Assembly (NCBI GenBank): GCA_030823955.1
Contig: JAVBYO010000006.1
Coordinates: 6,951 to 70,950 of the forward strand
Source: Gallionellaceae bacterium
Lineage (GTDB): Bacteria; Pseudomonadota; Gammaproteobacteria; Burkholderiales; Gallionellaceae
DNA: 64,000 nucleotides
Reading direction: 5' to 3'
The notes under the pieces were generated by a model that was given only the letters and a program-made list of their open reading frames with translations, ran no database searches and was not told the origin of the DNA. Both the position numbers and the translations under genes were made by a program. Below are positions 18,566 through 43,167 of the stretch, one piece after another; position 1 is the stretch's first letter, and each line of letters starts with the position of its first letter.

Positions 18566-21500
18566 TCAGCTTTTCTCCGCCCGCTTCAACAACTCATAAC
18601 GCACGAACGCCTCGCGGATCAGCGCGATGAGCACCTCGTTCTCCCAAGGCTTGGTGATGAATTGGTATATCTCGCCCTTGTTGATGGCGTCGGTCAGCGT
18701 GCCGACCTCGGTATAACCGCTCAGGATCATACGCACCGCATCGGGATACATGATCTTCACCCGGCGCAGGAACTCCACCCCGCTCATACCCGGCATACGC
18801 TGATCGGAGAGCACCACATTGACGCGGTTCTGCGCCATCACCTCCAGGCCCTCCTCGGCGCTGGAAGCGGTGAGGATGGTATAACCTTCGCGCCGCAGGA
18901 TACGTTTGAGCGACATCTGCACGTTCTCCTCGTCATCCACCAGCAGCAGCACCTGCTCCGACACACTCTCCGTCGCCATCTTGCCGCGCGCCAACAATGC
19001 GGCGAACTCCTCCGCAGGCAGTGGACGGCTGAACAGATACCCCTGCATCTCCTTGCAGTGCACCGAGCGCAGATAACCCAATTGCGCCTCGGTCTCCACC
19101 CCTTCGGCGATGGTCGTCATTCCCAGCGTTCTGGCCAGCGCGATGATGGCCTGCACGATGGCGGCATCGTTTGGATCGCGCGCGATATTGCTGACGAAAG
19201 ACTGGTCGATCTTGAGTTTGTCCACGGGGAACTGCTTGAGATAGGACAGGCTCGAATAACCGGTGCCGAAATCGTCGATGGAAAGATGCAATCCCATCGT
19301 TTTGAACTGCAGCATGATGGCGATGGTCTCCTTCACGTTCTGCATGATCGCGCTTTCGGTGAATTCCAGCTCCAGATACTGCGGTGCCAACCCGGACTGT
19401 TCCAGCACCTCCCTGACGGTCTCGGTCAGGTTCGATTCATGCAACTGCAACGTGGACAGATTCACCGCGATGATCAGTTCGCTCCCTGTCTCCTCATGCC
19501 ATTGCCGCATCTGGCGGCAGGCTTCACGCAACGCCCAGGCACCCATCGGTACGATCAGTCCAGTCTCTTCGGCCACCGGGATGAACTCGCCCGGCATGAT
19601 CACCCCGCGCTCCGGATGATTGATACGGATAAGCGCCTCCGCCCCGATGATCTCCCCAGTGACAATATCCACCTGCGGCTGGTAATGCAGCAGGAGCCGC
19701 CCCTGTTCCATCGCACTGCGCAACTCGGCCCCCATGGTCAACAATTGGCGCGCATGTTCGTTCATGCTGGCCGAATAGAACCTGAAACTGTTCTTGGCAC
19801 CGGACTTCTTGGCATCCGCCAGCGCGGCATCGGCATGCTGCATCAGGCTGGCTGTGTCTTCCCCGTCCAGCGGATAGACCGCGATCCCCAAACATGCCGA
19901 CAGCTGCACCTGCTGGACCGACAAAGTGAACGGCTGATACAGCTTCTGCGTGATGCGCTCGGCGAAACGTCCGATCTCCTCGGTGGTGTTGATGTCCGGC
20001 AGCACGACCACGAAGGTGTCGGCAGACAACCGGGTGACCGTGGCCTGTGATGGCACGGAATCGACCAGGCGCAGCGCGGTAATGGTCAGGATATCGTCCC
20101 CGCCGCCGTGTCCGAACATGTCATTCACGGTATGGAAATGATCGAGATTGAGGAACATCACCCCGATAAAACGCTCGTATTGCCGCGCATGGGTGATCGC
20201 ACTCTCCAGGCGGTCCTCCAGCAAAGCGCGGTTGGGCAGATCGGTCAGCGGGTCGTAGTGCTTGAGATGTTCGAGTTCCTCCACCGCTTTCTTTTGCAGC
20301 AGATCACTGAAGATAGCGAAGTAATTGATGGTATTCCCATCACTATCCTTGACCAGATTGATTCTGGACCATTCCGGAAAAATCTCGCCGTTCTTGCGGC
20401 GGTTCCACATCTCCCCCTGCCAACTGCCCTGCAACAGCAGGGTATGCCACAGCGTACGATAGAATTCCGGGGGATGTTTGTCGGATTTCAGGATGCGCGG
20501 GTTCTTGCCGATGACTTCTTCCGGCGCATAACCGGTGATGTCTGAAAATGCCTGATTGATGCGAATGATGTTGTTGTCGGCATCACAGATCAACATGGCG
20601 TCGGCACTGCTGGAAAACACCCGGTCAGCCAGCTTGATCTGGTTTTCCTGCTGCTTTTTGACGGCATTGTCATGGATTCTGCTCAGCGCAAAAGCGATAT
20701 TGTCGCTCAGTTTGGCCAGCAGATCGGTCACCTCGGCATCGAAAAAATTCACCGTATCCGTGTATACCATGAGTGCGCCGCGAAAATCCGGCGTGATGAT
20801 CGGAAGAGAAATGCCGCCGCGCAATTTGTATTGTTCCGCACGTGCGCGCCAGAATTCGGTCATCGGATGCGTGGCGTAATCATTGACGACCACCGGACGT
20901 CCTTCGCGGATAGCCGTTCCGGTGGGGCCCTGTCCGGCAGGCAGGTCGGAGCGTGTGGAAAGCGCCAGATCGGCCACATAGTCCCGCGCCGCGCCGGCGA
21001 TAGAGAGGGGAATGACCTGGTGCGCGCTGTCCTCCTGCCCGAACCACACCAGACTGAAACCGCCAAAATCCAATATCACCTGGGATATCCGCTCCAGCAA
21101 TTGCTGCGCGTCGTCCGAATGGATGATGGCCGCATTACTCTGGCTCAAGGTGGCGTACAAGCGCGTCTTGCGCTCTTCTGCGGCGGTTCTGCGTGCGACC
21201 TCCTGTTCAAAATAGTGCTGCAAGCGGCTCAGTTCAAGATGCACACGTATTCTGGAGCGCACCTCATCGATATCGAACGGCTTAGTGATGAAGTCCGCCG
21301 CGCCGATGGAAAAGCCGCGCACCTTGTCCACCGTGGAATCGATCACACTGAGGAAGATGACCGGAATGCGATTGCCCGCCTCGGTCGTCTTGATATGCCG
21401 ACACACTTCATAACCATCCATCTCGGGCATCATGATGTCGAGCAGGATCAGATCCGGCGGCGTCGCACTTTGCACCATCTCTATGGCTTTTCTTCCGCTG

Positions 21501-22045
21501 TTCGAGACCAGTATGCGATACTCGTCGGACAATGCGCTCACCAGTTCGTGGACGTTCTCCGGCACATCGTCCACCACCAGGATACTGAGATACTGCAAGG
21601 GTGCGCCATCGTTGCCAGAGGGTGCGGAGAGCGGTTTCTTGCGATAGCGCCGTAATTCAAGCTGTGTCAGCACGCGCAAATTGAGCAGGTCGGGATTGAC
21701 CGGCTTGGTGATGTAATCGGCCGCCCCCATCTTCAATCCTTTGGCTTCGTCTGCCGATTCCGACAACGCAGTGACGAAAATGACGGGGATGTCTGCGGTG
21801 GCCGGATCTGCCTTGAGCCTGTGCAACACTTCATAACCATTCATGCCCGGCATCTTGATATCGAGCAGGATCAGATCCGGCTGGGGCTGGTGTGCGGCCA
21901 ATGCCAGCGCCTTCTCACCGCCGGTAGCCGCGACGACCGCGTAGCGGTCACGCAGAATATTCATCATCACGTGCAAGTTCTCACTCACATCATCGACGAT
22001 GAGTATCTTGGCTTTGCTGTTGGCTTTGCTGTTGGTTTTGCTCAT
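18566..22045 (-). CDS. REC-REC-GAF-PAS-GGDEF(degenerate)-EAL-REC signalling protein, probable c-di-GMP phosphodiesterase
   Basis: Two N-terminal receivers (ILIVDDVSEN..LLDIKMPGMNG; ILVVDDVPEN..LLDIMMPEMDG), then GAF and PAS domains. The GGDEF site reads RLSADTFVV. The EAL domain is intact (GAEALIR, DDFGTGYSSL, EGVETEAQ). A third receiver (LLLVDDEEN..LSDQRMPGMSG) sits at the C-terminus. ATGA overlap with the upstream gene. Confidence 0.9.
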   Translation of the reverse strand: MSKTNSKANSKAKILIVDDVSENLHVMMNILRDRYAVVAATGGEKALALAAHQPQPDLILLDIKMPGMNGYEVLHRLKADPATADIPVIFVTALSESADEAKGLKMGAADYITKPVNPDLLNLRVLTQLELRRYRKKPLSAPSGNDGAPLQYLSILVVDDVPENVHELVSALSDEYRILVSNSGRKAIEMVQSATPPDLILLDIMMPEMDGYEVCRHIKTTEAGNRIPVIFLSVIDSTVDKVRGFSIGAADFITKPFDIDEVRSRIRVHLELSRLQHYFEQEVARRTAAEERKTRLYATLSQSNAAIIHSDDAQQLLERISQVILDFGGFSLVWFGQEDSAHQVIPLSIAGAARDYVADLALSTRSDLPAGQGPTGTAIREGRPVVVNDYATHPMTEFWRARAEQYKLRGGISLPIITPDFRGALMVYTDTVNFFDAEVTDLLAKLSDNIAFALSRIHDNAVKKQQENQIKLADRVFSSSADAMLICDADNNIIRINQAFSDITGYAPEEVIGKNPRILKSDKHPPEFYRTLWHTLLLQGSWQGEMWNRRKNGEIFPEWSRINLVKDSDGNTINYFAIFSDLLQKKAVEELEHLKHYDPLTDLPNRALLEDRLESAITHARQYERFIGVMFLNLDHFHTVNDMFGHGGGDDILTITALRLVDSVPSQATVTRLSADTFVVVLPDINTTEEIGRFAERITQKLYQPFTLSVQQVQLSACLGIAVYPLDGEDTASLMQHADAALADAKKSGAKNSFRFYSASMNEHARQLLTMGAELRSAMEQGRLLLHYQPQVDIVTGEIIGAEALIRINHPERGVIMPGEFIPVAEETGLIVPMGAWALREACRQMRQWHEETGSELIIAVNLSTLQLHESNLTETVREVLEQSGLAPQYLELEFTESAIMQNVKETIAIMLQFKTMGLHLSIDDFGTGYSSLSYLKQFPVDKLKIDQSFVSNIARDPNDAAIVQAIIALARTLGMTTIAEGVETEAQLGYLRSVHCKEMQGYLFSRPLPAEEFAALLARGKMATESVSEQVLLLVDDEENVQMSLKRILRREGYTILTASSAEEGLEVMAQNRVNVVLSDQRMPGMSGVEFLRRVKIMYPDAVRMILSGYTEVGTLTDAINKGEIYQFITKPWENEVLIALIREAFVRYELLKRAEKS

Positions 22046-25000
22046 GTCATTCCCCTGAATTTCACATCCGCCGGATTGTTAGATCTGATCCTGTTCATAC
22101 GCTCAAGCAGCGCCCTGATAAGCAGCAGCGCTTCGTCGATAGCGAACATATCCATCTTGGCGGCGATTTCGGCGATGTCCGGTTCCACTTCGCTTCCTGC
22201 CGCCCCGCTGCGCAATTCCGCCAGAGGTTGCTGCGCCGCCCCCAGGTCGGTCTCCAGCAGCGCGGCCAACGCCGCCAGTTTGGCCAACAATTCATCGTAT
22301 GTCAGTGCAACAACAGTGTCCGGTAGCGGGCTCTTGGACAAAACCAATTCGTCTATCGCCGTCATCACCTGTTGCACCTGTTCGCGCAACTGTTCGAATT
22401 GGGCCGCGTCCGGTCGTTTGCCCTGCTTTAACAAGTTATCCAGTTCGCCTGCACAGGCGAATAACGCGTTGGCACCGAGGTTCCCGCTCACGCCTTTCAA
22501 TGTATGACAGTAAGCTTCGCCGGCAACCAGCCCCTGCGCCTCAATCTGCCGCTGCAACTCACCCGCTGCCGCTGCGTAGTGTTCACGAAAGCGGCGCAAC
22601 TGGCTGCGATAAGCCTCTGTCTTGCCGCCGATGCGACGGATACCCTCCGCCGCATCAATGCCGCGCAAAGACAGTAAATCGGCAGGTAGCGCAGATGCGG
22701 TACGCTGACTTTCGTCCGCAGCACGAGCCGTCAACCGGTCTGTCGGCAACCATTTGGCCAATGTCGCCACCAGCCGCCGCGGATCGACCGGCTTGGTGAT
22801 GTGATCGTTCATGCCGGCCTGGCGGCTCTTTTCTTCATCCTGCGCCATCGCCAACGCGGTCATGGCGATGATGGGCAATTCAGCATAGCGCTCATTTCCA
22901 GTTTGCTGCGCCAATGCGCGAATGTGCCGGGCCGCATCCAAACCGTCCATCACCGGCATCTGGATATCCATCAACACCGCATCGTAGCCCCGCTGCTGCA
23001 CCTGCTCCACGGCATCCGCACCATTCACAGCAGTGTCCACCTCGATGTTCATGCTGCGCAGCAGTTCCGTGGCAAATTCGCGGTTTATCTCGTTGTCTTC
23101 TACCAGCAACAAACGGGTTCCGGCGAAATCATGGCCATCGCCGGCATCGTCCGTTTCCCGTTCAGACTGGCCTATTTCCATGATACGCCCGCGCCCCAGC
23201 GTGGTGAGTACCGTATCGAGCAGCGTGGAAGGGGAAACCGGCTTGACCAGAAAGCTGTTTATTCCGGCCCGGTCGGCCATCTTGACCACCTCCTCACGCC
23301 CGTAGGCGGTGACCATCACTATTTTGGGTTGCCGCAGGGCCGGGTCGGCGTGGATGAGACGGGCCACCTCGTCGCCGTTCATGCCGGGCATGCGCCAGTC
23401 CATCAGTACCAGATCGAATGGCCGCGCGGCCTCCTTCAGCACCTTAAGCGCACTCGAACCACTGGCTGCGACGCTGACTTCAAGGCGCAGGAAACGCAAC
23501 ATCTCGGCGAGTATCTCGCGCGATGCTTCGTTGTCATCCACCACCAGTACGCGGATGCCTTGCAGCAGCGGGCCGGCTTGTTCCAGCAAGGCACGATGGC
23601 GAGCCTGGGCCTGCTCGGCGATCTGAAGCTGCAGCGTGCAGCAGAAAGTGCTGCCTTTGCCCGGCTGCGAATCCTCGATCCAGATGCGTCCACCCATCAA
23701 CTCCACCAGCAACTTGCTGATCGCCAGCCCCAAACCGGTACCGCCGAACTTGCGTGTGGTGGATTGATCGGCCTGGGTGAATTTCTGAAACAGCTTCTCC
23801 TGCACTTCCGGCGCCATGCCGATACCGGTATCGCGCACCGAAACCTGCAAGGTCAACGAGGTTTCGCCAGCCGCCAGGCCGCGGAAGGACAACTCCACTT
23901 CGCCGGCCTCGGTGAATTTGATTGCGTTGCTGCACAGATTGAGCAGCACCTGTCCCAGGCGCAGCGGATCGCCGATCAGCGCGGGCGGAATGCTCGCATC
24001 GTAGCGGATCAAAAACTCGATGCCTTTCTGTTCGGCTTGCATGCCGACCGAATCGGCCAGTTGCTCCAGCACGCCGTCCAGCCCGAACTCGATATTCTCG
24101 ATATGCAGCTTGCCGGCCTCGATCTTGGAGAAATCCAGGATGTCGTTGATGATGCCGAGCAGCGACTGCGCCGCACTCTGGGCCTTTCGCAGGTAGTTGT
24201 GCAGCGTCGGCGACAGCTCCTGCTTCATTGCCAGATACAACATGCCGAGAATGGCGTTCATCGGCGTGCGTATCTCGTGGCTCATATTGGCGAGGAACTG
24301 GGCTTTGGCCTGCGTCGCCGCCTCCGCAACAGCCCGTGCCTGCTGCGCCTCACGCTCGGCGCTCTTGAGCGGCGTGATATCCACGATCAGTCCGACCAAG
24401 CCGCCCGGCGTGCCGTCGGCATTGACGAAGCCGGTCACCGAGTAGAGCGTGTCGTGTGTCTTGCCGTCGGCGAAGACCATGGGTAATTCGCGCGACCGGC
24501 TTCCGGCATGGGCGATCACCGCTTCGTCTTCCGCCTGATAAGCCAGCCTTTCCTGTTCCGGCAGATATTCGAGGTCGAGCACGCGTTTGCCGATGAACTG
24601 TTCGCGCCGGGTGTCGAATATCTGTTCGTAGGCTTTGTTGCAGCCGAGGAAGCGGGTGTCGGCACCTTTGTAGAAGATGGCATTAGGGATGCTGTCGATC
24701 AGTGCCTGCATCAGCGTGAGTTGCTGCGCTATCCTGTTCTGCATGATGCGGTTTTCGGTGATGTCTTCCATCACGCTGACCGCCCCCTTGCTCAAATCGG
24801 AAGGGTCGATGGCGCGCACCGCCATGCGCAGCCAGAAGCGGCTGCCGTCCTTGCGTACCGCTTGGTATTCGCGGGTGTAGGTTTCGCCACGTGCAATCTG
24901 TTCAGCTATCGCCTGTACGGTAACCAGGAAGTCATCCTCGTCGGTGTGCCAGATGCACGCCGATTGGCCGAGCAACTCATTCTCGGTATAACCGAACAAT

Positions 25001-26079
25001 TGTTTCATGCGCCGGTTGCAGCTGCCGATGATGCGGTTCTTGGTCAGTACGATGCCGACGCTGGCCGAATCGAATAGCGCCTGCATTTCCGCGGTACGCT
25101 CCGCGACCAGATGTTCCAGATTGGCGCGTTCCAACTCCAGTTCTCGTGTGCGTTGCGCCACTTGCCAGCGCAGCAGCAAACTGATGCCGAGCAACAGCAG
25201 CACAACTGCCGTTCCCCCGCTCAACGACCACAGCGCCCAGTTCGGCAGCAGGACTTCCTGCGGCGCGGCCATCGCGCGGTGCAAAGCGGTGAAATAGACG
25301 GAATCCGGATCGCGCCGCCAGCGGGTCAGGTGCAAGTCAATCTGCGCCAGCAGTTCGACATTGCGCCCTTTGCCGCTGGCGAAATACAGATTGCTCGGCA
25401 AAAAGACGATGGGCGTTTCCTGTAGCTTGTATTTGTCGCCGTTGCGTGCCGCAAAGAAACTGTTGGTCACTACCGCATCGGCTTCGCCTGCCACCACGGC
25501 GGCATAACCCTGGTCGAGCGATTCCACCGGCACCGGTACATAGCGGTAATTCCCGCTGGCCATGAGTTGCGCGAAGAAGGATTGCTGGATGCCACCTTGC
25601 AGCATGGCGACACGCTTGCCGGACAAGTCGGCGATGGAATGGACTTTGAAGTGCGGCGGGGTATATATCTGCGACCAACTGCTGGCGACCGAGACATTGT
25701 GAAAGTCGAAGCGCAGTGCGCGCTCGGTGGAGAATGCCACATCCGGCATCAGATCCAACTCGCCCCGTTCCAGGCGGTTGAGGCAGTCCGCCCACTGGCA
25801 GGGCACATAATGCAGCGTCCAGCCTTGCGCACGCGCCATCGCGTCGAGCAGTTCGACGAACAATCCGGCGGGACGTCCATGCTCACCGGTATAGATTTTC
25901 GGCGCGTTCTCGTAAAGCCCCACATTGAAGGCGCGCCGTTCAGCACTTCCGCCGCTATGGCTGTTCCATTGCCATGCGGCAAGGGAAAGTCCGAGCAGAA
26001 GCAGGACGGACAGCACAAACTTTACGGTTTGCTTGCTTTTCATGAGCGCCATTCTCTGCAATGAAATTTCGGGCGACAT
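22042..26079 (-). CDS. Hybrid sensor histidine kinase: periplasmic solute-binding (SBP_bac_3-like) domain-TM-PAS-PAS-HisKA-HATPase-REC-REC-Hpt
   Basis: FNVGLYENAPKIY...DLMPDVAFS (PBP type 2), H-box FLANMSHEIRTPMNAILG, G-boxes DTGIGM and GGTGLGL, receivers LMDWRMPGMNG and LMDIQMPVMDG, Hpt CHTLKGVSGNLGA. An alternative ATG lies at 26043. Confidence 0.9.
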   Translation of the reverse strand: MSPEISLQRMALMKSKQTVKFVLSVLLLLGLSLAAWQWNSHSGGSAERRAFNVGLYENAPKIYTGEHGRPAGLFVELLDAMARAQGWTLHYVPCQWADCLNRLERGELDLMPDVAFSTERALRFDFHNVSVASSWSQIYTPPHFKVHSIADLSGKRVAMLQGGIQQSFFAQLMASGNYRYVPVPVESLDQGYAAVVAGEADAVVTNSFFAARNGDKYKLQETPIVFLPSNLYFASGKGRNVELLAQIDLHLTRWRRDPDSVYFTALHRAMAAPQEVLLPNWALWSLSGGTAVVLLLLGISLLLRWQVAQRTRELELERANLEHLVAERTAEMQALFDSASVGIVLTKNRIIGSCNRRMKQLFGYTENELLGQSACIWHTDEDDFLVTVQAIAEQIARGETYTREYQAVRKDGSRFWLRMAVRAIDPSDLSKGAVSVMEDITENRIMQNRIAQQLTLMQALIDSIPNAIFYKGADTRFLGCNKAYEQIFDTRREQFIGKRVLDLEYLPEQERLAYQAEDEAVIAHAGSRSRELPMVFADGKTHDTLYSVTGFVNADGTPGGLVGLIVDITPLKSAEREAQQARAVAEAATQAKAQFLANMSHEIRTPMNAILGMLYLAMKQELSPTLHNYLRKAQSAAQSLLGIINDILDFSKIEAGKLHIENIEFGLDGVLEQLADSVGMQAEQKGIEFLIRYDASIPPALIGDPLRLGQVLLNLCSNAIKFTEAGEVELSFRGLAAGETSLTLQVSVRDTGIGMAPEVQEKLFQKFTQADQSTTRKFGGTGLGLAISKLLVELMGGRIWIEDSQPGKGSTFCCTLQLQIAEQAQARHRALLEQAGPLLQGIRVLVVDDNEASREILAEMLRFLRLEVSVAASGSSALKVLKEAARPFDLVLMDWRMPGMNGDEVARLIHADPALRQPKIVMVTAYGREEVVKMADRAGINSFLVKPVSPSTLLDTVLTTLGRGRIMEIGQSERETDDAGDGHDFAGTRLLLVEDNEINREFATELLRSMNIEVDTAVNGADAVEQVQQRGYDAVLMDIQMPVMDGLDAARHIRALAQQTGNERYAELPIIAMTALAMAQDEEKSRQAGMNDHITKPVDPRRLVATLAKWLPTDRLTARAADESQRTASALPADLLSLRGIDAAEGIRRIGGKTEAYRSQLRRFREHYAAAAGELQRQIEAQGLVAGEAYCHTLKGVSGNLGANALFACAGELDNLLKQGKRPDAAQFEQLREQVQQVMTAIDELVLSKSPLPDTVVALTYDELLAKLAALAALLETDLGAAQQPLAELRSGAAGSEVEPDIAEIAAKMDMFAIDEALLLIRALLERMNRIRSNNPADVKFRGMT

Positions 26080-26083
26080 ATTC

Positions 26084-27337
26084 TCACTTTAAGGCCGCCG
26101 TGTAATTAACAATAAGATGGTGTTCGGTGATGGTGCCGAGGACTCCACCGAGCCGCTGTTCCAGACGTGCCGTGCGGGCCCGCAGCCACAAAGATCTCGC
26201 CCACTCCGGCCATGTTGTGCCGGTCAGCCGGTAATCCACCGTGAAATCGTATTCGGTGTTGTCTGACAGAGCGGCTCCCGTCGCCGGGTTGATAGCACCG
26301 CTTCCAAAGCTGGCCGAACCGTTGAGGGCGAGTCCCGCCATCCCCATGCGCCCGAGATCCAGCGCGGCATCGACGGCGCGCACCTGTTCCCCGGCGCGAT
26401 TGAAGCTGGTGATGATGCGGCAGACATAACCCTGCCACGAGCCGAACGGTGTGCGATAAGCGGCGGATGAACCGGTCTGCATCAAGCTGCCGGAAAGCAT
26501 GAGAGGCCCGCGCAACCAGTCGAGTTTGATGCCCGTCGAGCTGGTGGAAAATGCCGAGCCGGTGAGCCGATTGGCACCCGTGCTGCTCTGCCGCATATAT
26601 TGTCCGCCAAGGCGCAGCGTATCGTCGTGGCCGAGCGGCAAGATGTTGCTCAGATCGACATAAGTCGATGTGAGCACATCCTTGATAAGGTAGCCGGAAA
26701 ATCCAAGGCTCAGGTTCTCATGCGGCACGAAATTCCCGCTCAGCAACAGCATCTGCTCGTTGACGGCGTCCGGCGCCCCGGCCACCGTGGCGACATCGAT
26801 GAATTCGGCTGAATTGCGCGTCTTCATCTTGCCGATGAGGCCTCCGAAATAATCAATCGCACCGCTCTTGCCGCTCAGCGCGATGCCCTGAAATGTACGT
26901 GGCGACATGCGCGTGTCCTGCGGATTGACTTCGTGCTGGTTGACCAGAAAACGTCCCGCCGTCAGCATCTGCGCACCGTGCCTCACGGCGGCAAATGCTT
27001 CGCCGAACACACTGTAGGGCTGTTGTCCGCTCGCCAGCACCGAGGCGCCATCTTTGTCCACCGGGGCATACAGCTTTTGCGAGGTATACCCGGTCACCCC
27101 CAGCTGCACAGTATCGAAAGCCCAGCCGGAGCGATATTCCAACCAGCCCCCGCCCGCCCAGCCGAGAGCATCGGTGGCGGACGATTGTTCGCGTTCGAGA
27201 AAGTGCGAGCGCAATTGCAGCGTCAGCCTGCTGTCGCGCACAAAAGACGACGGCTCGTGTTTGACAATTTCGGCGTCACACAGCGGGGATGCGCAGATCA
27301 AAAAAAAGATCAGTGGCAGAAATGCCGTGTTGCCCAT
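26084..27337 (-). CDS. OprD-family outer-membrane porin
   Basis: Signal peptide MGNTAFLPLIFFLICASPLCDA, then FVRDSRLTLQLRSHFLERE and alternating beta-strand patterns typical of OprD. The ATG at 27337 leaves a 46-nt gap to the upstream kinase. Confidence 0.75.
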   Translation of the reverse strand: MGNTAFLPLIFFLICASPLCDAEIVKHEPSSFVRDSRLTLQLRSHFLEREQSSATDALGWAGGGWLEYRSGWAFDTVQLGVTGYTSQKLYAPVDKDGASVLASGQQPYSVFGEAFAAVRHGAQMLTAGRFLVNQHEVNPQDTRMSPRTFQGIALSGKSGAIDYFGGLIGKMKTRNSAEFIDVATVAGAPDAVNEQMLLLSGNFVPHENLSLGFSGYLIKDVLTSTYVDLSNILPLGHDDTLRLGGQYMRQSSTGANRLTGSAFSTSSTGIKLDWLRGPLMLSGSLMQTGSSAAYRTPFGSWQGYVCRIITSFNRAGEQVRAVDAALDLGRMGMAGLALNGSASFGSGAINPATGAALSDNTEYDFTVDYRLTGTTWPEWARSLWLRARTARLEQRLGGVLGTITEHHLIVNYTAALK

Positions 27338-27383
27338 TGCCGCCACATGCTCTGGCCCATGCGGCGAGTGAACCGATGATGAG

Positions 27384-30300
27384 CTATTCGGATGCACCAT
27401 TTTCCACCGCGTCCGCCAGTTGAGCGCGCAAAGCTCTGGTCTGATCGAGTGCAGCATCGATGTCGAACACATCCACGCTGGCTGCGATCCCGTTCACGGC
27501 AGATTCCGCTTTACTCCCGGCAACACCGTTGCGCAAAGTGTCAAGCAGCTGTTCCGCCGCCCCCAGATCGCTCTCCAGCAACACGATTAACTCATCCAGC
27601 TGTTTCAGCAAATCCTGCGGAACTGGCTTGTCGGCCGCAACCGGGCGGGCGGGTGCGGAAATGGCGAGGGCATCGATCTCGGCCATGACCCGATCGAGCA
27701 GGATGCGCAGCTGTTCAAACTGTTGCTGCACAGGCGTTTGATTCTGCTTCAGCGAGCTATCCAGAACAGCAAGAGCGGCAAACAACTCATCCGCGCCCAG
27801 ATTGCCGCAAACGCCCTTGAGACTGTGGCAATATTCCTCGCACTCGCGCACGCCGCTTTCTTTGAGCAAGCGCTGCAACTCGTCGATCGCCTGCGGATAA
27901 TGCTCGCGGAAACGCCTCAATTGCCGGAGATAGGCATCGACGTTGCCGCCGATACGATGGATGCCCTGTGCGGCATCGATGCTGTGTAAAGCCGCCAGAG
28001 CGGCGGACAGGTTCATCACACCGGGCTTCTCCGCAGTATTCGCGGATCGGGTGCCGACCGGCAGCCATTTTGCCAGGGTCTTCATCAAGTGTTCGGGATC
28101 GATGGGCTTGGTAATGTGGTCGTTCATACCCGCATCCCGGCTGTTTTTTGCGTCCTGCGCCATCGCCAGCGCGGTCATGGCGATGATGGGCAATGCGACA
28201 AAACGCTCTCCATCCGCTTGTTGTGCCAGTGCGCGAATGTTTCGTGCAGCTGTCAGTCCGTCCATCACCGGCATTTGGATATCCATCAACACGCCGTCGT
28301 AATCATTCTTCTGCACCATGGCTACCGCTTCTGCGCCGTTTGCAACCTCATCGACTTCGATGTGCATGCTGTGCAGCAGCTCAACCGCGAACTCGCGGTT
28401 GATCGGGTTATCCTCCACCAGTAACAGGCGCAGGCCGGAAAAGTCATAACAGGCCAACTCGTGGGATTCAGCATGGGCCCTTCTTTTCATCTCCACGAGA
28501 TGGCTGTATCCCAGAACCGAGAGGAGGGTGTCGAGCAGAGTGGACGGCGACATCGGCTTGACCAGCAAGCCGTTCACCCCCGCCTGCTCCGCCTGTTTGA
28601 GCGCATCTTCATGCCCGTATGTGGTCACCATCACCAGCTTGGGCTGGGGCCGGATGGTGCTGTCGGTACGGATATGCCGGGTGATCTCTTCGCCGCCCAT
28701 GTCGGGCATACTCCAATCTATCAGCACCAGATCGAAGGGGTGACTGCCGGATGCCTTCAGCAGGTTGATCGCCTCGGCTCCACCAGTGGCGGCGGCGATA
28801 TCAAGATTGAAGAAATGCAGCATCTCGGTGAGTATCTCGCGCGAGACGGCATTGTCATCGATGACCAGCACTCGGGTGTTCTTGAGCAGCGGACCGGCCT
28901 GTTTCACCAGTTCGAGCCGCTGTGCTTGTTCCTGTTGCGCGATATCAAGCTGCATCGTGCAGCACATAGTGGTGCCCTTTCCCGGCTGCGAATTTTCTAT
29001 CCAGATACGGCCGCCCATCATCTCGGTCAGATATTTGCTGATGGACAGCCCCAACCCGGTACCGCCGAAGCGGCGGGTGGTGGACTGGTCTGCCTGGGTG
29101 AATTTCTGGAACAGCAGGTTTTGCGTCTCCGGCGACATACCGATACCGGTGTCGCGCACGCAGACTCTCAGGGTGAGCCCCGAATCGGTGATCTCTACAG
29201 CACGGATGTCCAACTCCACCTCGCCACGCTCGGTGAATTTGATCGCGTTGCTGCACAGATTCAACAACACCTGCCCCAGGCGCAGCGGGTCACCGATCAG
29301 GGTGTAAGGGATGTTGGGATCGTAGCGAACGAGAAGCTCGATGTCTTTTTGCGCCGCCTGAAAACTGATCGTGTCGGACAATTGCTCCAACACGGTATCG
29401 AGACTGAATGCGATGTGTTCAATTTCGACTTTCCCGGCCTCGATTTTCGAAAGATCCAGAATGTCGTTGATGATGGACAGCAGTGAATGTGCCGCTCCTT
29501 GGGCCTTGCTCAGGTAATTGCGCTGAGCCGGTGTCAGTTCGGTCTTGAGCGCGAGGTATTGCATGCCGATGATGGCATTCATCGGGGTGCGTATCTCGTG
29601 GCTCATGTTGGCCAGGAACTCGGACTTCGTGCGCGTGAGCTCTTCCGCCAGCGTCTTCGCTTTCAGCATCTCCGCAGCGGCCACATGTTCGGCATTGATG
29701 TCTTCGATCAACCCCAGCAAGGCTTGCCGTGCCTGATCCGACTTGGCGAGTAATGCGCGGATCTCGCTCTCCGACTCGCGCCGCTGGGTGATGTCGCGCG
29801 CGATGCCCAATACCCCGATGAGGATGCCGTTGTTATCACGCACCGGCATCTTGATGGTCTCGGCCAAGACGCGTTGGCCGGTCTCCGCAATGGTCAGCCA
29901 TTCCTCGTTAGTACGCGCCACACCGGCTGCACTGGCAGCCAGGTCATTGGCACGAAAGAAATCCGCCAGTTCGCGCGGGACAAAGTCGTAATCGGTCTTG
30001 CCGACGATATCGGCTTCTTTTGCGCCGAAGAGCCGTTCGAAAGCATGGTTGCAGGCAAGATAGACACCCTCGTTGTCTTTCATCCAGACGAGATCAGGGA
30101 TGGTACGCACCAGTGTGCTTAACAACGCTTCATTGGTCACGATGGCCGCACTCATATGCTCCCGTTCCGCTTCGACTTGCGCCAGATATCTGGCGACCCA
30201 TAGCACCAGTGAACTGAGGATGACAACATAGGCAAGCGCGACGAGCGCAACGCCAAAATCCGGCTGGTATAGATGGAAGTCTTCTCCTGTCAGCTTGAGC

Positions 30301-31070
30301 CAGCCGATCAGAGGCGGAAGGAACAGGGTTGCCGGTAATAGCCTGCGAGTTATAGCGCCACTGCTGTCACGCCGCCTGAACAGCGCGACCACGCCATGTT
30401 CGGGTTGTGCGCAGAGCAGGCCCGTGCCCAGCAACATGAGCGCCAACACCGTGTTCGCCGCCAGCTGTACGGCATATTCCAGCCCATAGGAGCTGTCGGT
30501 ATCGTAGAGATAGATCAGCCCCGATGCGAGAGCAATAAATGTGACCACCACAGCGAGTGCCGCAATGAGCCAACGCTGACGGGGTGACTTGCCATCCAGA
30601 AACAATGCCGAGCCCAGCAACATGAAACACAGCGCACTCGCCGGAGCCATACGCCCCGGAGGCAGGGAGCCAACTGCTCCAGCGGCTTCCTGAAACAGCC
30701 ATTGGTCGATACCGAAGTCGCTCGCAGTCAGATATTCCAGTGCGGAGAGTAATCCTATCAGGATGACAAGGCCGGACAAGATGCGCCGGACAAACTGTCC
30801 GCGTGAGGAAGGAAGCGTGACTTCGCGTGCCTTCAGCCACAGCGCCACCCCGCTCAGGAGGAAACAAATCGCCGTATTGGCTTTCATCGCCACCCAGTCT
30901 GGGTGGATACTCTTCAACGTCGCGCTGTCCACCAGCCAGCCGAGCAGTACGATGGCACCAATCGAGGCTGCGGCCATTCCCGCCGATTTGGCGAGCAACA
31001 ACCAGAAGTGGGCATTCTCCCAGCGCCGGGGAGTGATGACTTCGGCTGCGGTAGCAAAACCGCTATGCAT
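27384..31070 (-). CDS. Hybrid sensor histidine kinase: polytopic N-terminal membrane domain-PAS-HisKA-HATPase-REC-REC-Hpt
   Basis: About 8 hydrophobic helices, then PAS, then FLANMSHEIRTPMNAIIG, DTGIGM, GGTGLGL, LIDWSMPDMGG, LMDIQMPVMDG and Hpt CHSLKGVCGNLGA. I prefer the ATG at 31070 (GGGAGGAAG 5 nt upstream) over the GTG at 31091. It overlaps the upstream stop codon by 8 nt. Confidence 0.9.
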   Translation of the reverse strand: MHSGFATAAEVITPRRWENAHFWLLLAKSAGMAAASIGAIVLLGWLVDSATLKSIHPDWVAMKANTAICFLLSGVALWLKAREVTLPSSRGQFVRRILSGLVILIGLLSALEYLTASDFGIDQWLFQEAAGAVGSLPPGRMAPASALCFMLLGSALFLDGKSPRQRWLIAALAVVVTFIALASGLIYLYDTDSSYGLEYAVQLAANTVLALMLLGTGLLCAQPEHGVVALFRRRDSSGAITRRLLPATLFLPPLIGWLKLTGEDFHLYQPDFGVALVALAYVVILSSLVLWVARYLAQVEAEREHMSAAIVTNEALLSTLVRTIPDLVWMKDNEGVYLACNHAFERLFGAKEADIVGKTDYDFVPRELADFFRANDLAASAAGVARTNEEWLTIAETGQRVLAETIKMPVRDNNGILIGVLGIARDITQRRESESEIRALLAKSDQARQALLGLIEDINAEHVAAAEMLKAKTLAEELTRTKSEFLANMSHEIRTPMNAIIGMQYLALKTELTPAQRNYLSKAQGAAHSLLSIINDILDLSKIEAGKVEIEHIAFSLDTVLEQLSDTISFQAAQKDIELLVRYDPNIPYTLIGDPLRLGQVLLNLCSNAIKFTERGEVELDIRAVEITDSGLTLRVCVRDTGIGMSPETQNLLFQKFTQADQSTTRRFGGTGLGLSISKYLTEMMGGRIWIENSQPGKGTTMCCTMQLDIAQQEQAQRLELVKQAGPLLKNTRVLVIDDNAVSREILTEMLHFFNLDIAAATGGAEAINLLKASGSHPFDLVLIDWSMPDMGGEEITRHIRTDSTIRPQPKLVMVTTYGHEDALKQAEQAGVNGLLVKPMSPSTLLDTLLSVLGYSHLVEMKRRAHAESHELACYDFSGLRLLLVEDNPINREFAVELLHSMHIEVDEVANGAEAVAMVQKNDYDGVLMDIQMPVMDGLTAARNIRALAQQADGERFVALPIIAMTALAMAQDAKNSRDAGMNDHITKPIDPEHLMKTLAKWLPVGTRSANTAEKPGVMNLSAALAALHSIDAAQGIHRIGGNVDAYLRQLRRFREHYPQAIDELQRLLKESGVRECEEYCHSLKGVCGNLGADELFAALAVLDSSLKQNQTPVQQQFEQLRILLDRVMAEIDALAISAPARPVAADKPVPQDLLKQLDELIVLLESDLGAAEQLLDTLRNGVAGSKAESAVNGIAASVDVFDIDAALDQTRALRAQLADAVENGASE

Positions 31071-32070
31071 CACTGCTTCCTCCCGCGACACTGGCGTAGC
31101 GCGGCAGCTCGCCGCCGCGAATCAATATCTCATTCACTTCACGCTTCAACTCCTGAATGCGGGTCTCGCGGTTCAGAGTGACTTCATGCCAGCGCTGTAA
31201 TTCGTCGAGTTTTGTCTGCAAGGTCTCATCTGCCAGTTTGCGTGCGGTGATGTCCTGCGCGATGGCGATGTATGTACCGGGGATGTCGCCGGATTTCCAG
31301 GTGGGCGAAACTGTTATGTGCAGCCAGCGCGTCGAGCCATCCTTGTGAAGGCAGCGCTCCTCCATGGAGAACTCGGTGATATGGCCGTCATTCAAGTCCG
31401 ATATATTCCCCAGTACGACGGGAAGATCGTCGATCTGGATGAGTGAATCTGAACTCATGCGCAATAGCTCATCACGCTCATATCCCAGAATGTCGCACAG
31501 CTTTTGATTGACGTGCAGGAACGCGCCCGAAAAGGTATCCACTTCGGCCACACCTATCGCCGCCTGTTCGAACAGGATACGGTAGCGCTCATCGCTGCTG
31601 TGCTTGAGGAGCGACAACTCCGCCTCAATCGCATTGCGCCGCGCGATCTCGGTTTGCAACTGCGCATTGCGCTCTTCCAATAGATGTGTGCTTGGAATCT
31701 TTAATGCCTGTGGCATCAGTCGCCATAGCAGCAACGCTGCGATCAGCGATACGATGGCGGTGAAGGTTTTTATCAGCGCATCCAGCCAGTAGTCCGGATA
31801 CCAGATAGTCCAGATACCGACCAGGTGTGTGGCACCGCAGGCGAAGATGAACAGCGAGAACATCTGGAATATCCAGTTGAACTGAAGATCGCGGCGTTTG
31901 CTCACGAAATACAGGAGACCGAACGGAATGGAGAAATAGGCCAGCACGATGACAGCTTCCGAGATCACGAAAGTCCACAGCAATTCCGGCGTCCAAAGAT
32001 AACAGTGCCCGTGCGGCATGAATCCGTCGGTACTGAGCCATTCCAATGCGTATTGCGGTGAGTCTTCCAT
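31063..32070 (-). CDS. Stand-alone sensor: ethylene-binding-domain-like 3-TM module + coiled coil + PAS, with no transmitter domain
   Basis: GHCYLW...ISEAVIVLAYFSIPFGLLYFVSKRRDLQFNWIFQMFSLFIFACGATHLVGIWT aligns by eye with the Arabidopsis ETR1 N-terminus, including the CGATH copper-ligand motif. A PAS domain follows. ATG at 32070 has AAGGAG 6 nt upstream; the ORF-track start at 32088 is a TTG. Confidence 0.75.
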   Translation of the reverse strand: MEDSPQYALEWLSTDGFMPHGHCYLWTPELLWTFVISEAVIVLAYFSIPFGLLYFVSKRRDLQFNWIFQMFSLFIFACGATHLVGIWTIWYPDYWLDALIKTFTAIVSLIAALLLWRLMPQALKIPSTHLLEERNAQLQTEIARRNAIEAELSLLKHSSDERYRILFEQAAIGVAEVDTFSGAFLHVNQKLCDILGYERDELLRMSSDSLIQIDDLPVVLGNISDLNDGHITEFSMEERCLHKDGSTRWLHITVSPTWKSGDIPGTYIAIAQDITARKLADETLQTKLDELQRWHEVTLNRETRIQELKREVNEILIRGGELPRYASVAGGSSDA

Positions 32071-32182
32071 CTGGAGCTCCTTGGGCAAACATCAATGCGG
32101 CGACATGAACGGCAGGCGCCATATTAGCGCAATAAGTTCCTGTTGATTAGGTTTGGGTTCAGTCGCAGAATAGCCCCATCTC

Positions 32183-33637
32183 ATGCGTTGCATTCCGTCT
32201 TCGATGAACTCCTCCCCCGCCAGCGTCGCAGAACCGGTCGTCATCCTGTGTGTGGATGACGAGCCGAACATCCTGAGTTCCCTGCAAAGATTATTGCATC
32301 GCCAGGGCTACCAGATAGTGACTGCACCCAGCGGGGCGGAAGGCTTGCAGGTGCTGGAGCGGCAGCCCATCGATCTGGTGATCTCGGACATGCGCATGCC
32401 GCAGATGGACGGTGCGCAGTTCCTGGAACAGGTGCGCCAGCGCTGGCCGGATACGGTACGGGTGCTGCTCACCGGTTATGCCGATGTCGAATCCACCATG
32501 GCGGCGATCAACAAGGGCGAGATCTACCGCTATATCGCCAAGCCGTGGGACGACAACGATGTGATCCTGTTGGTGCAACTCGCGATGGAGCGCAAGCTGT
32601 TGCAGCAGGAAAAGAAACGCCTCGAAGCTCTGACCCAGCAACAGAATGAAGAGTTGAAGACACTCAACGCAAGCCTGGAAATAAAGGTGCAGGAACGCAC
32701 CCAGGCACTGAAGCTGGCGCTGCATGAGGTTGAGATATCCAATGAACACTTGCGCAAGAACTTCCACACCTCGGTCTCCATCTTCACCAATCTGATGGAG
32801 TTGCGTGCCGGCGGTGTCGGCGGCCATTCCCGGCGTGTCGCGGAATTGGCACGCAATCTGGCTTTGCAGATCGGCATGACCCGTGACGAAGTACAGAACG
32901 TGGTATTGGCCAGCCTGCTGCACGACATCGGCAAGATCGGCCTGTCCGACATCATATTGAACAAACCGGAGCCATTGCTGACGGATATCGAGCTGGCCCA
33001 GCTGATGCGGCATCCGGTGATCGCGGAGGCGGCGCTGATACCGCTGGATCAACTCAAGGCGGCGGCAGTGCTGATCCGCTCTCATCACGAGCGCTTTGAC
33101 GGCAAGGGTTATCCCGAAAAACTATCCGGGTCTTCTATCCCGTTGGGCGCGCGCATCCTGCTGCTGGCGAATGATTTTGACGCTTTGCAACACGGCCACA
33201 TGCTGGGCACCCCGCTATCACCGGCGAAGGCATATGAATTCGTCATCGACTCAAGCGGCAAGCGTTACGACCCGGCGGTCGTGAACGCGTTCAAAGAATT
33301 GTTCGGCGGCAAGCAGTTGCGTGACGACGTCGCCCCCCACGCCCATACCGAAGAGTTGAAATCTCGCCCGGCGATGCCCAGAAGTGTTGTCGCACACAAG
33401 ATCGCAACCCAAAGCGAGGTGCCGCCAAACGAGGTGGCGGTGGAGATGAATTCCGCTGACCTCAGGCCCGGCATGGTGCTGGCAAAGGGCGTCGTCAGCC
33501 GCGAGGGCTTATTGCTCATGTTTCGCGATGACGAATTGGACTCCACCCTGATCGCGCAGATGATCAAATTCGAACACCAGGAAAAATATCCCCTGGTGTT
33601 CTGGGTCAAACAGCGCGGAAATTGGTTACGCACATGA
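32183..33637 (+). CDS. Response regulator with HD-GYP c-di-GMP phosphodiesterase domain (RpfG-like)
   Basis: Receiver [26 protein letters not shown]; HD-GYP motifs LLHDIGK and [11 protein letters not shown]. Confidence 0.9.
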
Positions 33638-35151
33638 ACACCCCGCTTAAAGTTAACGCTTTTGTCTGGAGCGACAAGCTGGCCACCGGCATCGACGAGG
33701 TGGATGATCAACATCAACGTCTGGTACAGCTCCTCAACGAGGTTGGCAGCATGTGTGCCGAGGGGGCGGACAGCAGCCGCATCAAACCCGTACTTGATGA
33801 ATTGGTGCGCTACGCGGTGTATCACTTCGATACCGAAGAACAGATGATGCGACAGTATGCGGTGAGTGAGGCACATCAAAGCAGCCACCTAAAAGCGCAC
33901 GACGATTTCCGCAAGCAGGTGTCGCTGGCGGTCGGCATCATCCAGACCGCACCGCAAAATTCGATGAATCTGCTGGGTCAATTGCTGGAGTATCTCTCGC
34001 GCTGGCTGCTGCAACACATCATGGTGGTGGATAAACGCATGGCCAAGGAAGTGCAGGCATTAAAAGCCGGTGCCAGCCCTGATGAGGCAACTGCGCAAGC
34101 TGTGGCGACGGTCTCCCGCACTGGTGACGTCATGCTGGAAGCCTTGAATTCGCTGTACAGCAAGATCGGCGAACAGACAGTGGAGGTGTTGCAGACCAAT
34201 CAGGCGCTGGAGATGGAGCGCGCCGCATTGCACAAACTGAACGAGGAACTGGAGCAGCGCGTCAGCCAGCGCACCGCCTCACTGGAGAGCGCCAACCAGC
34301 AACTGCTCCAGAACAATCTCGAACTCAAGCAACTGAACCTAAAACTCTCCACGACACAAAACCAGTTGCTGCAATCGGAAAAGATGGCATCCATCGGGCA
34401 ACTGGCAGCGGGCGTGGCGCACGAGATCAACAATCCCATCGGCTTCGTGAATTCTAATCTGGGCACGCTGGAAAAATACATCTCCGATCTGAGCCGGGTG
34501 CTGGCGAGCTACGAACGTGCCGAAGCGACCACCGGCACACAGCTTGCCGAGATCGAAGTGATCAAACGCGAGGTCGATCTGCCTTACCTGTTGAACGATA
34601 TCCCGAACCTGCTCAAGGAATCGCAGGACGGACTGGCCAGGGTCAAACGCATCATTCAGGATCTGCGCGATTTCTCCCATGTGGACGAAGCCAACTGGCA
34701 ACGCGCGAATCTTGAGCATTGCCTGGATAGCACTCTGAATGTGGCCTGGAACGAGATCAAATACAAGGCCGAGGTCAAAAAAGAATATGCCGGGCTGCCG
34801 GATATCGAGTGTATGCCCTCGCAGCTCAACCAGGTGTTCCTCAACCTGCTGGTCAACGCTGCCCAAGCCATCGAAGGCAAAGGTGTCATCACCCTGCGCA
34901 CCGGCGTAAAGGCGGGGGAGGTATGGGTGGAGGTCGCCGACACCGGCAAAGGCATCCCCGCCCAACATCTGGATCAGATATTCGATCCTTTTTTCACCAC
35001 CAAACCGGTCGGACAGGGAACGGGCTTGGGCTTGTCGGTCTCCTACGGCATCGTGCAAAAACACGGCGGCCATATCGAGGTGCGCAGCGAGCCTGGCAAA
35101 GGCACTTCCATGCGTGTGTATCTACCCATCGAACGTACGGCGGAGCAATGA
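33634..35151 (+). CDS. Bacteriohemerythrin-fused sensor histidine kinase
   Basis: N-terminal [22 protein letters not shown]...YHFDTEE...HDDF...[12 protein letters not shown] (hemerythrin His/Glu/Asp ligand pattern), a coiled coil, H-box [13 protein letters not shown], and HATPase motifs [26 protein letters not shown] overlap with the upstream gene. Confidence 0.85.
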
Positions 35152-35152
35152 C

Positions 35153-37869: not shown

Positions 37870-38097
37870 GTTCTCCAACAAATCGGGCCGCATTACGAGG
37901 ATGATGCGCGATACTTGTTACAAGACCGCGAAATCGTGACTATCCGATTAACATCAGCCCCATCATATCCCCAACGCGGCGAGAAACAAAGAAGCTCTTC
38001 CGCGTTTGGTCAATCATACCGAAGTCGGCTACATTAGCGACTTGGCTCTGAACGGATAGACACGGCAACGGGTACACGCCCAGCCGGATGTGGGCAA

Positions 38098-40770: not shown

Positions 40771-40785
40771 GAAGGATATCTGGCC

Positions 40786-42087: not shown

Positions 42088-42088
42088 G

Positions 42089-42113
42089 AACTAAAGGAGT
42101 CAGCTTCGCATTT
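42089..42113. repeat. Island boundary repeat copy R1
   Basis: aACTAAAGGAGTCAGCTTCGCATTT begins 2 nt after the stop codon of the 433-aa ORF. Confidence 0.7.
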
Positions 42114-42163
42114 CAGCCCCTGTGACAGGTACAACAATCAGGGCAATAACTAGAACGCCGATT

Positions 42164-42919: not shown

Positions 42920-42961
42920 AGATACACCCTTGCTTGTGCTGCGCCCTTAAGGATACCGTCG

Positions 42962-42985
42962 GCTATAAAGGTTAGCCTCGCGTTT
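42962..42985. repeat. Island boundary repeat copy R2
   Basis: GCTATAAAGGTTAGCCTCGCGTTT, 43 nt upstream of the 251-aa ORF ATG. Confidence 0.65.
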
Positions 42986-43003
42986 CTTCTAGCCACCTCT
43001 CAA

Positions 43004-43027
43004 GCTAAACGGGTCAGCCTCGCAATT
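43004..43027. repeat. Island boundary repeat copy R3
   Basis: GCTAAACGGGTCAGCCTCGCAATT. Confidence 0.7.
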
Positions 43028-43053
43028 ACCCCCAGCATCCAATCACGCACCAC

Positions 43054-43076
43054 GAGTAGCCTCTTGCCGCAAGTCA
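43054..43076. repeat. Degenerate repeat copy R4
   Basis: gagTAGCCTCttgcCGCAAgtc aligns with the GTCAGCCTCGCAATT core with an insertion. Confidence 0.35.
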
Positions 43077-43111
43077 TTGGAATAATCGGGGACAGACTAC
43101 GGTTTCTCGGA

Positions 43112-43135: not shown

Positions 43136-43167
43136 TCCGTTTTGTTTGATGCCGTATAGCGCGCCGC

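Follow-up and report, generated by a model that had tools for sequence, protein, structure and literature searches.

A transmitter-less sensor with an ethylene-receptor-type membrane domain and a conserved C-terminal tail, encoded in tandem with a hybrid histidine kinase in a Gallionellaceae bacterium

Bacterial counterparts to the plant receptor ETR1's ethylene-binding domain (EBD) bind ethylene in Synechocystis and Azospirillum (PMC6682694, PMC11819568). AzoEtr1 of Azospirillum brasilense, an EBD-PAS-histidine kinase protein of 525 residues, binds 14C-ethylene and controls how biofilms form and how roots are colonised (PMC11819568), a 2025 result which makes outdated the remark, made in an original prediction for the locus considered here, that such homologues are functionally uncharacterised outside cyanobacteria. 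The locus in question lies in a 64,000-nucleotide stretch of a Gallionellaceae bacterium (GenBank assembly GCA_030823955.1, contig JAVBYO010000006.1, positions 6,951 to 70,950; hereafter the window, whose coordinates are used throughout). Here, a gene on the reverse strand (31063..32070, (-)) codes for a 335-residue protein with an EBD, a PAS domain and a C-terminal tail, and its end overlaps the start of a gene for a hybrid histidine kinase. This sensor adds a transmitter-less form to a known receptor family, although output-less EBD proteins may already stand in earlier architecture surveys. Taken as a whole, the locus is best explained by an output-less sensor subunit that would act on the adjacent kinase in response to an ethylene-type ligand, with cyclic di-GMP (c-di-GMP) as the eventual output, an explanation to which we give an even chance.

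The resemblance to AzoEtr1 lies in the proteobacterial origin and in the N-terminal three-helix ETR1-type domain followed by PAS, and AzoEtr1 likewise belongs to a two-component pathway affecting biofilm-type behaviour. Homologues with the AzoEtr1 architecture (EBD-PAS-HWE kinase, about 518 residues) are 37-40% identical to the sensor. However, AzoEtr1 includes a kinase and retains the full set of seven ETR1 binding residues, whereas the window sensor has no kinase, ends in the tail, carries a glutamate at the position of Asp25 and is accompanied by a separate kinase with a membrane sensor of its own. Similarly, the Cu(I)/ethylene-binding domain is homologous to that of ETR1 and the cyanobacterial SynEtr1 and shares with them Cys65/His69, Tyr32, Ile35, Pro36, Ile62 and Lys91 (ETR1 numbering), but both of these receptors carry GAF or phytochrome-like domains, an attached histidine-kinase transmitter and Asp25. 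Further, ETR1 dimerises via the N-terminal Cys4/Cys6, in place of which the window sensor has a single cysteine, in the HGHC motif discussed below. With only six of the seven binding residues and no attached transmitter, the sensor is therefore not to be filed as a canonical ethylene receptor.

A second point of comparison is offered by the nitric oxide-sensing pairs H-NOX/HnoK and NosP/NahK and by a recently described Cache_heme-HAMP receptor which acts on a separate kinase (PMC12570481; bioRxiv 10.64898/2026.05.25.727664). In these systems an output-less sensor of a gas or small ligand is encoded beside a histidine kinase, sometimes a hybrid one, and controls it by contact, often feeding into c-di-GMP or biofilm control; the window sensor would work in a like manner. 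The NahK/ErcS C-terminal model even matches the window kinase, though at a sub-threshold score. However, the H-NOX, NosP and Cache sensors are haem-based, whereas the window sensor has a non-homologous, copper-type three-helix membrane domain; H-NOX and NosP are soluble, whereas the window sensor is membrane-integral; and the putative docking element is the C-terminal tail rather than a HAMP domain or an H-NOX surface. Since the sensor matches only ETR1_N and PAS models, these pairs are an analogy and not a family to which it belongs.

The longest open reading frame (ORF) at this position, 31063..32088 (-), would start with TTG and yield 341 residues; AAGGAG stands 6 nucleotides ahead of the ATG at 32070, the start that gives the 335-residue product ending at the TAG at 31065-31063. 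The ORF, its Shine-Dalgarno (SD) sequence and its translation thus bear out the gene as originally proposed, and about 50 orthologues share its architecture. The translation contains the peptide by which it was first recognised (ISEAVIVLAYFSIPFGLLYFVSKRRDLQFNWIFQMFSLFIFACGATHLVGIWTIW...FTAIVSLIAALLLWRLMP), as well as the AYFSIP and CGATH motifs and the Cys/His pair that had been named. Residues 29-125 (31696..31986, (-)) match the Pfam ETR1_N profile (PF25487, "Ethylene receptor 1-like, N-terminal domain") along its entire length (positions 1-97 of 97) with 130.7 bits against a cut-off of 27 bits (E 2.5e-38), which substantiates the ETR1-type domain by an actual profile comparison. An AlphaFold2 (AF2) model built on 50 orthologues places in this block the three transmembrane (TM) helices (residues 28-58, 65-90 and 94-123; pLDDT mostly 79-92), and the EYIPICHK residue signature described below identifies it as being of the ethylene/Cu(I)-binding type.

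The third TM helix is followed by a linker helix leading to the PAS N-cap (residues 126-158; 31597..31695, (-); part of a long AF2 helix at 128-169, pLDDT about 90) and by a PAS domain (residues 159-280; 31231..31596, (-)), which is matched over residues of about 160-280 by the Pfam and NCBIfam models TIGR00229 (E 1.5e-22), PAS_9, PAS_3 and PAS and folds as such at 173-273 in the AF2 model (mean pLDDT 85). A last helix spans residues 275-318. No match to kinase (HisKA, HATPase), GGDEF, EAL, HD or MCP models was found in the sensor with Pfam and NCBIfam. Hence, of the composition first suggested, namely a coiled coil, a PAS domain and a helical tail, the linker helix, the PAS domain and the final helix all stand, but the tail is not the generic helix it was taken for. 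A Foldseek search with the cytoplasmic half returned only PAS and short-LOV structures (best E about 2e-8), and sequence and fold searches of the PDB with the EBD returned PAS hits alone and no solved EBD structure. The similarity to short LOV proteins (PpSB1/PpSB2-LOV, MrLOVe) extends to an effector-less PAS core with an N-cap and J-alpha and to a long C-terminal helix; in contrast, no flavin-binding cysteine motif was noticed in the sensor PAS, although no formal search for one was made, the sensor is membrane-anchored by its EBD, and its C-terminal helix bears a distinct, highly conserved motif.

The exact sensor protein is present, unnamed, in public collections. Its approximately 50 orthologues, of 326-341 residues and the same architecture, bear no annotation beyond "PAS domain S-box protein"; those at 53-89% identity come from metagenome-assembled genomes (MAGs) named Gallionellaceae, Gallionella, Sulfuricella and Sterolibacterium. 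Against five of these orthologues the whole gene has a dN/dS of 0.20-0.29, with values of 0.12-0.17 for the EBD and 0.18-0.44 for the tail. The gene is kept by purifying selection despite the lack of a detected output domain; this and the number of orthologues of like architecture go well past anything chance would give. The EBD is the most conserved region of the sensor (mean column identity 0.83) and is by these measures clearly functional, though its ligand affinity or specificity may be unlike that of ETR1. More broadly, ETR1_N is very common in bacteria: a pattern scan of species-representative genomes gave at least 600 candidate stretches, 559 of them confirmed by tblastn, and the usual architectures are EBD-kinase, EBD-kinase-REC, EBD-PAS-HWE-kinase of the AzoEtr1 type and EBD-...-GGDEF.

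For the residues of the copper site, the N-terminus of Arabidopsis ETR1 was used as a ruler, on which D25, Y32, I35, P36, I62, C65, H69 and K91 fall on their literature positions. Alignment to it equates positions 25, 32, 35, 36, 62, 65, 69 and 91 with sensor residues E38, Y45, I48, P49, I75, C78, H82 and K101, respectively. The Cu(I) ligands Cys65/His69 thus correspond to C78/H82 in the CGATH motif of the second helix, which are conserved in 119 of 120 homologues, and the equivalents of Y32, I35, I62, C65 and H69 are unchanged in all 50 orthologues. The original prediction had named the loss of other invariant EBD residues as grounds for rejecting it; six of the seven ethylene-binding residues are in fact identical, while Asp25 is changed to a glutamate (E38; codon at 31957..31959, (-)), a natural D25E-type variant and no clean loss, as the corresponding ETR1 mutant still binds weakly. 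In ETR1, binding was undetectable for D25A, D25N and D25Q in a yeast assay, whereas D25E showed saturable but substantially reduced binding, and two roles have been proposed for Asp25, one in tuning the copper site and one in output, through a bridge to Lys91 (PMC10266040). Lys91, the polar-bridge partner of residue 25, is retained as K101 in the sensor. Of 84 loci drawn from many phyla, 68 carry the canonical signature DYIPICHK, and Glu25 is limited to two groups, the Gallionellaceae-type clade with its fused members and a set of 395-residue EBD-kinases. Thus, the glutamate probably places the ethylene affinity of the sensor below that of ETR1; it would lower ethylene binding rather than rule it out.

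This variation bears on the identity of the ligand. Position 25 is Glu in about 33 of the 50 orthologues, Asp in about 15, and Gln and Gly in one each; the Lys91 position is N, M, T, R or H in about 16 and the Pro36 position Ala or Ser in about 11. P36A reportedly abolishes ethylene binding by ETR1, as does D25A, and since both positions vary, ethylene binding may be wholly absent from part of the clade. Nor are Gallionellaceae classical plant associates, which leaves the natural ligand uncertain. Each of these points, together with the glutamate of the sensor itself, weighs against ethylene, and they raise the alternative that the same architecture and partner serve a different cue in a micro-aerophilic iron oxidiser: Cu(I) availability, redox state or oxygen through the Cu(I)/Cu(II) couple, carbon monoxide, acetylene or other alkenes. 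The relaxation of Lys91 and Pro36, set against the invariance of the remaining site residues, is in keeping with this, as are the neighbouring genes for a hemerythrin kinase and a PAS-GAF kinase, typical sensors of O2, iron or redox state, and the origin of the closest relatives, which are groundwater Gallionellaceae and Sulfuricella MAGs. On the other hand, all EBDs tested, whether plant, cyanobacterial or from Azospirillum, bind ethylene, and no EBD is known to have another ligand; the sensor shares the copper ligands and differs in just one of the five other binding residues, and binding persists in the D25E mutant. Ethylene also builds up in waterlogged soils and sediments, the habitat of such bacteria. 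On balance we regard a non-ethylene ligand as somewhat unlikely, though still a serious contender.

Upstream of the first TM helix, residues 17-25 form the motif F-M-P-H-G-H-C-Y-L (31996..32022, (-)), in which M18, P19, H20 and G21 are invariant and H22, C23, Y24 and L25 nearly invariant among the 50 orthologues. With the following tryptophan (F-M-P-H-G-H-C-Y-L-W) it lies outside the Pfam domain, and HxHC[YFW]LW is found in 108 of 120 bacterial EBD homologues. The HGHC motif is probably periplasmic, and this His/His/Cys cluster could be a site of metal handling, copper acquisition or (disulfide) dimerisation.

Inspection of the end of the sensor gene reveals a coupling junction (31063..31084, (-)), read directly from the sequence: an SD sequence, GGGAGGAAG, at 31084-31076, eight nucleotides upstream of the kinase start codon and inside the coding end of the sensor, the kinase ATG at 31070-31068 and the sensor TAG. 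The resulting 8-nucleotide overlap (ATGCATAG) is as originally noted, and the public gene call, exactly 1228 residues from this ATG, agrees with it. No terminator was found between the sensor and kinase genes in a promoter and terminator scan of 18-33 kb, whose counts did not exceed those from shuffled sequence. More than a bare transmitter, the downstream kinase possesses a large membrane sensor domain, overlooked in the original prediction and comprising about eight helices (residues 1-310; 30141..31070, (-); AF2 pLDDT 83, pTM 0.79). For this uncharacterised domain Pfam gives no match up to E 10, and the PDB no fold match (best E 0.55). The rest of the protein (27384..30140, (-)) consists, by Pfam, of PAS_4 (residues 323-432), HisKA (482-546, with the H-box SHEIRTP at 490), HATPase (593-708), two REC domains and Hpt (1051-1129). 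Homologues of the membrane domain also head short kinases of 517-550 residues in other lineages.

The association between the two genes was examined in 12 loci with tail-bearing orthologues, eight from genomes (L001-L008) and four from metagenome contigs (L084-L087). The next gene starts with a homologous membrane domain in all 12 (46-71% identity), and its first PAS domain is 59-87% identical in 11, with no match in L084. What follows, as resolved in all loci but L003 and L004, is variable: the partner is a hybrid kinase in L001, L002 and L005 and a plain kinase in L006, L007, L008, L085, L086 and L087, whereas in L084 (Sterolibacterium) it is a 1462-residue PAS-GAF-PAS-GGDEF-EAL-REC protein behind the shared membrane domain. 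The two genes overlap by as much as 8 nucleotides, in L002 (L001, too, has candidate starts that overlap), or stand as far as about 23 nucleotides apart; the 283-nucleotide gap in the L086 gene call probably reflects a mis-called start, because homology begins 14 nucleotides past the sensor stop. By this comparison, the conserved unit is the sensor plus a membrane-domain-PAS partner, whatever the output. The split receptor first proposed for this locus, signalling by protein-protein contact, accordingly has good support from comparative genomics in the shared partner of all 12 loci, and stays unproven, the contact itself being inferred from gene order only.

The tail module (residues 281-326, LDELQRWHEVTLNRETRIQELKREVNEILIRGGELPRY; 31093..31230, (-)), modelled by AF2 as a single helix at 275-318, is followed by only nine residues before the sensor stops. 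Its mean conservation exceeds that of the PAS domain (0.72 against 0.63), and nine positions are invariant across the 50 orthologues (E290, W294, E302, R304, L308, K309, E311, L316 and Y325). Of the 50 orthologues 48 carry the motif, and of 70 other EBD proteins none does. Pfam, NCBIfam and the PDB have no entry for the tail, a search of the accessible literature for its sequence gave no hits, and a protein search with the tail alone in a word-indexed database returned two tiny fragments only. A profile constructed from 30 tails was then searched exhaustively against 1.84 billion representatives (clusters at 50% identity), yielding 8,425 protein clusters at E <= 1e-3, 2,846 of them at E <= 1e-10, and defining a family motif of about 55 residues, ...LDELRRWHxxTLGRExRxxELKxEVNxLLxxxGxPPRY. 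Among the best 150 of the 8,425, in proteins of 76-1285 residues, a stretch of 15-48 residues separates the tail from the C-terminus in 142 of 143 cases. Ninety such proteins of at least 280 residues that were examined contain no output domain (0/90); their domains are PAS (86), REC (31), GAF (19), PocR (4), CHASE (2) and dCache (2), with MEDS, ETR1_N, 5TMR-LYT, CHASE3 and HAMP once each.

The genomic neighbourhoods of the tail family were sampled from 80 metagenomic loci drawn with the profile, 66 of which have enough downstream sequence. In half of these (33/66) the tail gene shares a 4-nucleotide NTGA start/stop overlap with a substantial ORF, and in a further 23 the next start lies within -40 to +60 nucleotides, so that 56 of the 66 are coupled and ten are not. 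The downstream protein is a HisKA+HATPase kinase in 34 of 57 tail loci, and the others include KaiC-like ATPases, one HD-GYP protein and proteins cut short by a contig end. A KaiC-like double-ATPase is coupled to the tail gene in 4 of the 57; one of these is Pfam-confirmed (L105:5187-6899), whereas the downstream ORFs of L125 and L132 are termed KaiC-like by their having the same size as that of L105, not by individual confirmation. The inputs are no less diverse. In L090, L095, L119 and L159 the tail is borne by PAS-only or REC-GAF-PAS proteins upstream of membrane-domain kinases of the window type. In Rhodocyclales-type genomes the arrangement is reversed, the tail being carried by dCache-PAS or dCache-HAMP-PAS proteins directly upstream of adjoining or overlapping EBD-HisKA-HATPase kinases of 395-446 residues (L014:678-3719, L089:3190-6188, L163:3423-6489). 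The EBD-kinase of L014 and the EBD-kinases of about 395 residues in this group also have Glu at the Asp25 position.

Because the tail sits on such varied inputs, the N-terminal input appears exchangeable, the constant part being the PAS-tail unit and the coupled signalling gene. As judged from these alignments and neighbourhoods, the tail is a conserved, unannotated module which marks a large class of output-less sensors coupled to kinases. Within this class, the window sensor is most likely a plug-in subunit, given its tail and its constant position directly before a membrane kinase or, in L084, a c-di-GMP enzyme. It is conceivable, if somewhat short of probable, that the tail is a general trans-output module by which thousands of enzyme-less sensors with EBD, Cache, CHASE, REC, GAF, PocR or MEDS inputs plug into the downstream protein, in most cases a histidine kinase, and lend it a further exchangeable input; the window sensor would then be the first ethylene-receptor-type domain to signal in trans, with the natural Glu25 variant tuning its affinity or changing its ligand.

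Set against such action on the adjacent kinase is the possibility of mere co-transcription, with the tail binding another receptor, a REC protein, an HD-GYP protein or a KaiC-like ATPase, or else stabilising a homodimer. Several observations count in this direction. The contact between sensor and kinase is read from gene order only, and the target of the phosphorelay is guessed from it; two further kinases and several REC proteins lie nearby, and several other signalling proteins are within 6 kb. Kinases with the same membrane domain also occur without an adjoining EBD gene (L083, 56% identity; L081/L082, 35-38%), hence the kinase does not need the sensor as a partner. Additionally, because non-kinase genes (KaiC-like, HD-GYP) follow the tail gene in a minority of loci, the target of the tail may not be the kinase core, or may be broader than histidine kinases. 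However, a membrane-domain-PAS partner is maintained in every one of the 12 loci despite changing outputs and neighbourhoods, most of the tail family shows start/stop overlaps, and it is precisely the covalent EBD-output fusions that lack the tail. We therefore consider a target other than the adjacent kinase improbable.

Downstream of the kinase, the same-strand gene string ends with a gene whose product combines REC domains with GAF-PAS-GGDEF-EAL (18566..22045, (-); Pfam and motifs). There are three REC matches, the third after the EAL domain; the GGDEF motif is degenerate (SADTF), whereas the EAL motifs are intact (EALIR, DDFGTG, EGVE). The protein, encoded by the last gene of the string, is probably a phosphorylation-controlled c-di-GMP phosphodiesterase and a likely terminal output, through which the signal would alter c-di-GMP. 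In L001 and L005 the GGDEF-EAL gene directly follows the kinase gene. Furthermore, two natural fusions occupy the syntenic position in relatives, each a single long gene where the window has the string, and both lack the tail. In an uncultured Gallionellaceae (L016, 6001-9036), an EBD-GAF-PAS-GGDEF-EAL-REC protein of 1011 residues is 79% identical over its last 867 residues to residues 293-1159 of the window enzyme, and in Sideroxyarcus (L009, 6001-8919) an EBD-PAS-PAS-GGDEF-EAL-REC protein of 972 residues is 64% identical over its first 284 residues to the window sensor and, in its C-terminal part, 74% identical to residues 457-1158 of the enzyme. These Rosetta-stone fusions are evidence for one pathway shared by the EBD input and the c-di-GMP enzyme; in the window the phosphorelay would bridge the two.

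The flanking DUF47, PHO4 and g15 proteins of L016 are 97-99% identical to those of the window, but its EBD is only 58% identical to that of the window sensor, a drop which suggests a recombination hot spot for sensor modules and indicates that the window is not a recent break-up of the L016 gene. That the sensor is a functionless, decaying fragment of such a fused EBD-PAS-GGDEF-EAL receptor, split by insertion of kinase genes, would fit the shared chromosomal position of the fused versions in close relatives but is so improbable that it can be set aside, in view of some 50 orthologues of constant length under a dN/dS of about 0.2, a clade-specific C-terminal module more conserved than the PAS domain, and an intact start, SD and stop. 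Selection, constant length and the conserved tail likewise led to the rejection of a pseudogene or split-gene remnant.

With the homology, residue conservation, architecture, gene overlap, pairing, natural fusions and tail distribution in hand, the metal and ligand binding, the physical contact, the direction of regulation and the route of phosphotransfer may be pictured as follows for the sensor subunit acting on its adjacent kinase. The 335-residue protein would be an inner-membrane sensor subunit without enzymatic output, in which Cys78 and His82 most likely hold Cu(I) and ethylene or a similar small unsaturated ligand is bound. The ensuing conformational change would travel from the linker helix through the PAS domain to the C-terminal helix, which is predicted to dock onto the downstream protein, made from the same mRNA by coupled translation. 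The hybrid kinase could then integrate two inputs, that of the sensor and that of its own membrane sensor of about eight helices, and the HisKA-REC-REC-Hpt phosphorelay would most likely end on the REC domains of the 18566-22045 product. Levels of c-di-GMP, and hence sessile or motile behaviour, would change in consequence.

Two further genes of the string are less constant. An OprD-family porin (26084..27472, (-); Pfam OprD, E 3.3e-28) sits between the two hybrid-kinase genes, its longest ORF reaching 89 nucleotides into the end of the kinase gene that precedes it; the strings of L001 and L005 are without a porin, and it is therefore probably not a core component. The second hybrid kinase (22042..26079, (-)), with a periplasmic SBP_bac_3 domain followed, by Pfam, by PAS-PAS-HisKA-HATPase-REC-REC-Hpt, is present in L002 and absent in L001 and L005. 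On the other side of the sensor gene, divergent genes code for the REC-HD-GYP protein (32183-33637), the hemerythrin kinase and the PAS-GAF kinase, followed by a convergent gene for a REC-REC protein (36916-37893). This signalling cluster (32183-37893) is dense, the first three genes overlapping by 16 and 38 nucleotides if their longest ORFs are taken. L002, L009 and L016 have kept the cluster, and L084/L085 part of it. No second EBD paralogue that might serve as a hetero-oligomer partner was found within the window. Beyond the cluster, right after mutS (38098-40770), the G+C content falls to 0.48-0.50 at 40001-44000 from about 0.58 elsewhere; this segment, which includes a 433-residue ORF (40786-42087) without a Pfam match, may have been acquired.

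The ethylene receptors studied so far, in plants, Synechocystis and Azospirillum, all carry their own transmitter. A transmitter-less version that is always paired with a separate kinase would offer a clean system for learning how the three-helix copper domain relays its signal. In addition, the clade is a natural experiment on the Asp25/Lys91 pair, which is central to the 2023 ETR1 model for affinity and output: Glu is here the commonest residue at position 25, and Lys91 drifts. The current name, "PAS domain S-box protein", hides both the EBD and the tail. Should the tail serve for docking, a partner could be predicted, and a further input assigned, for many "orphan" PAS proteins and many kinases.

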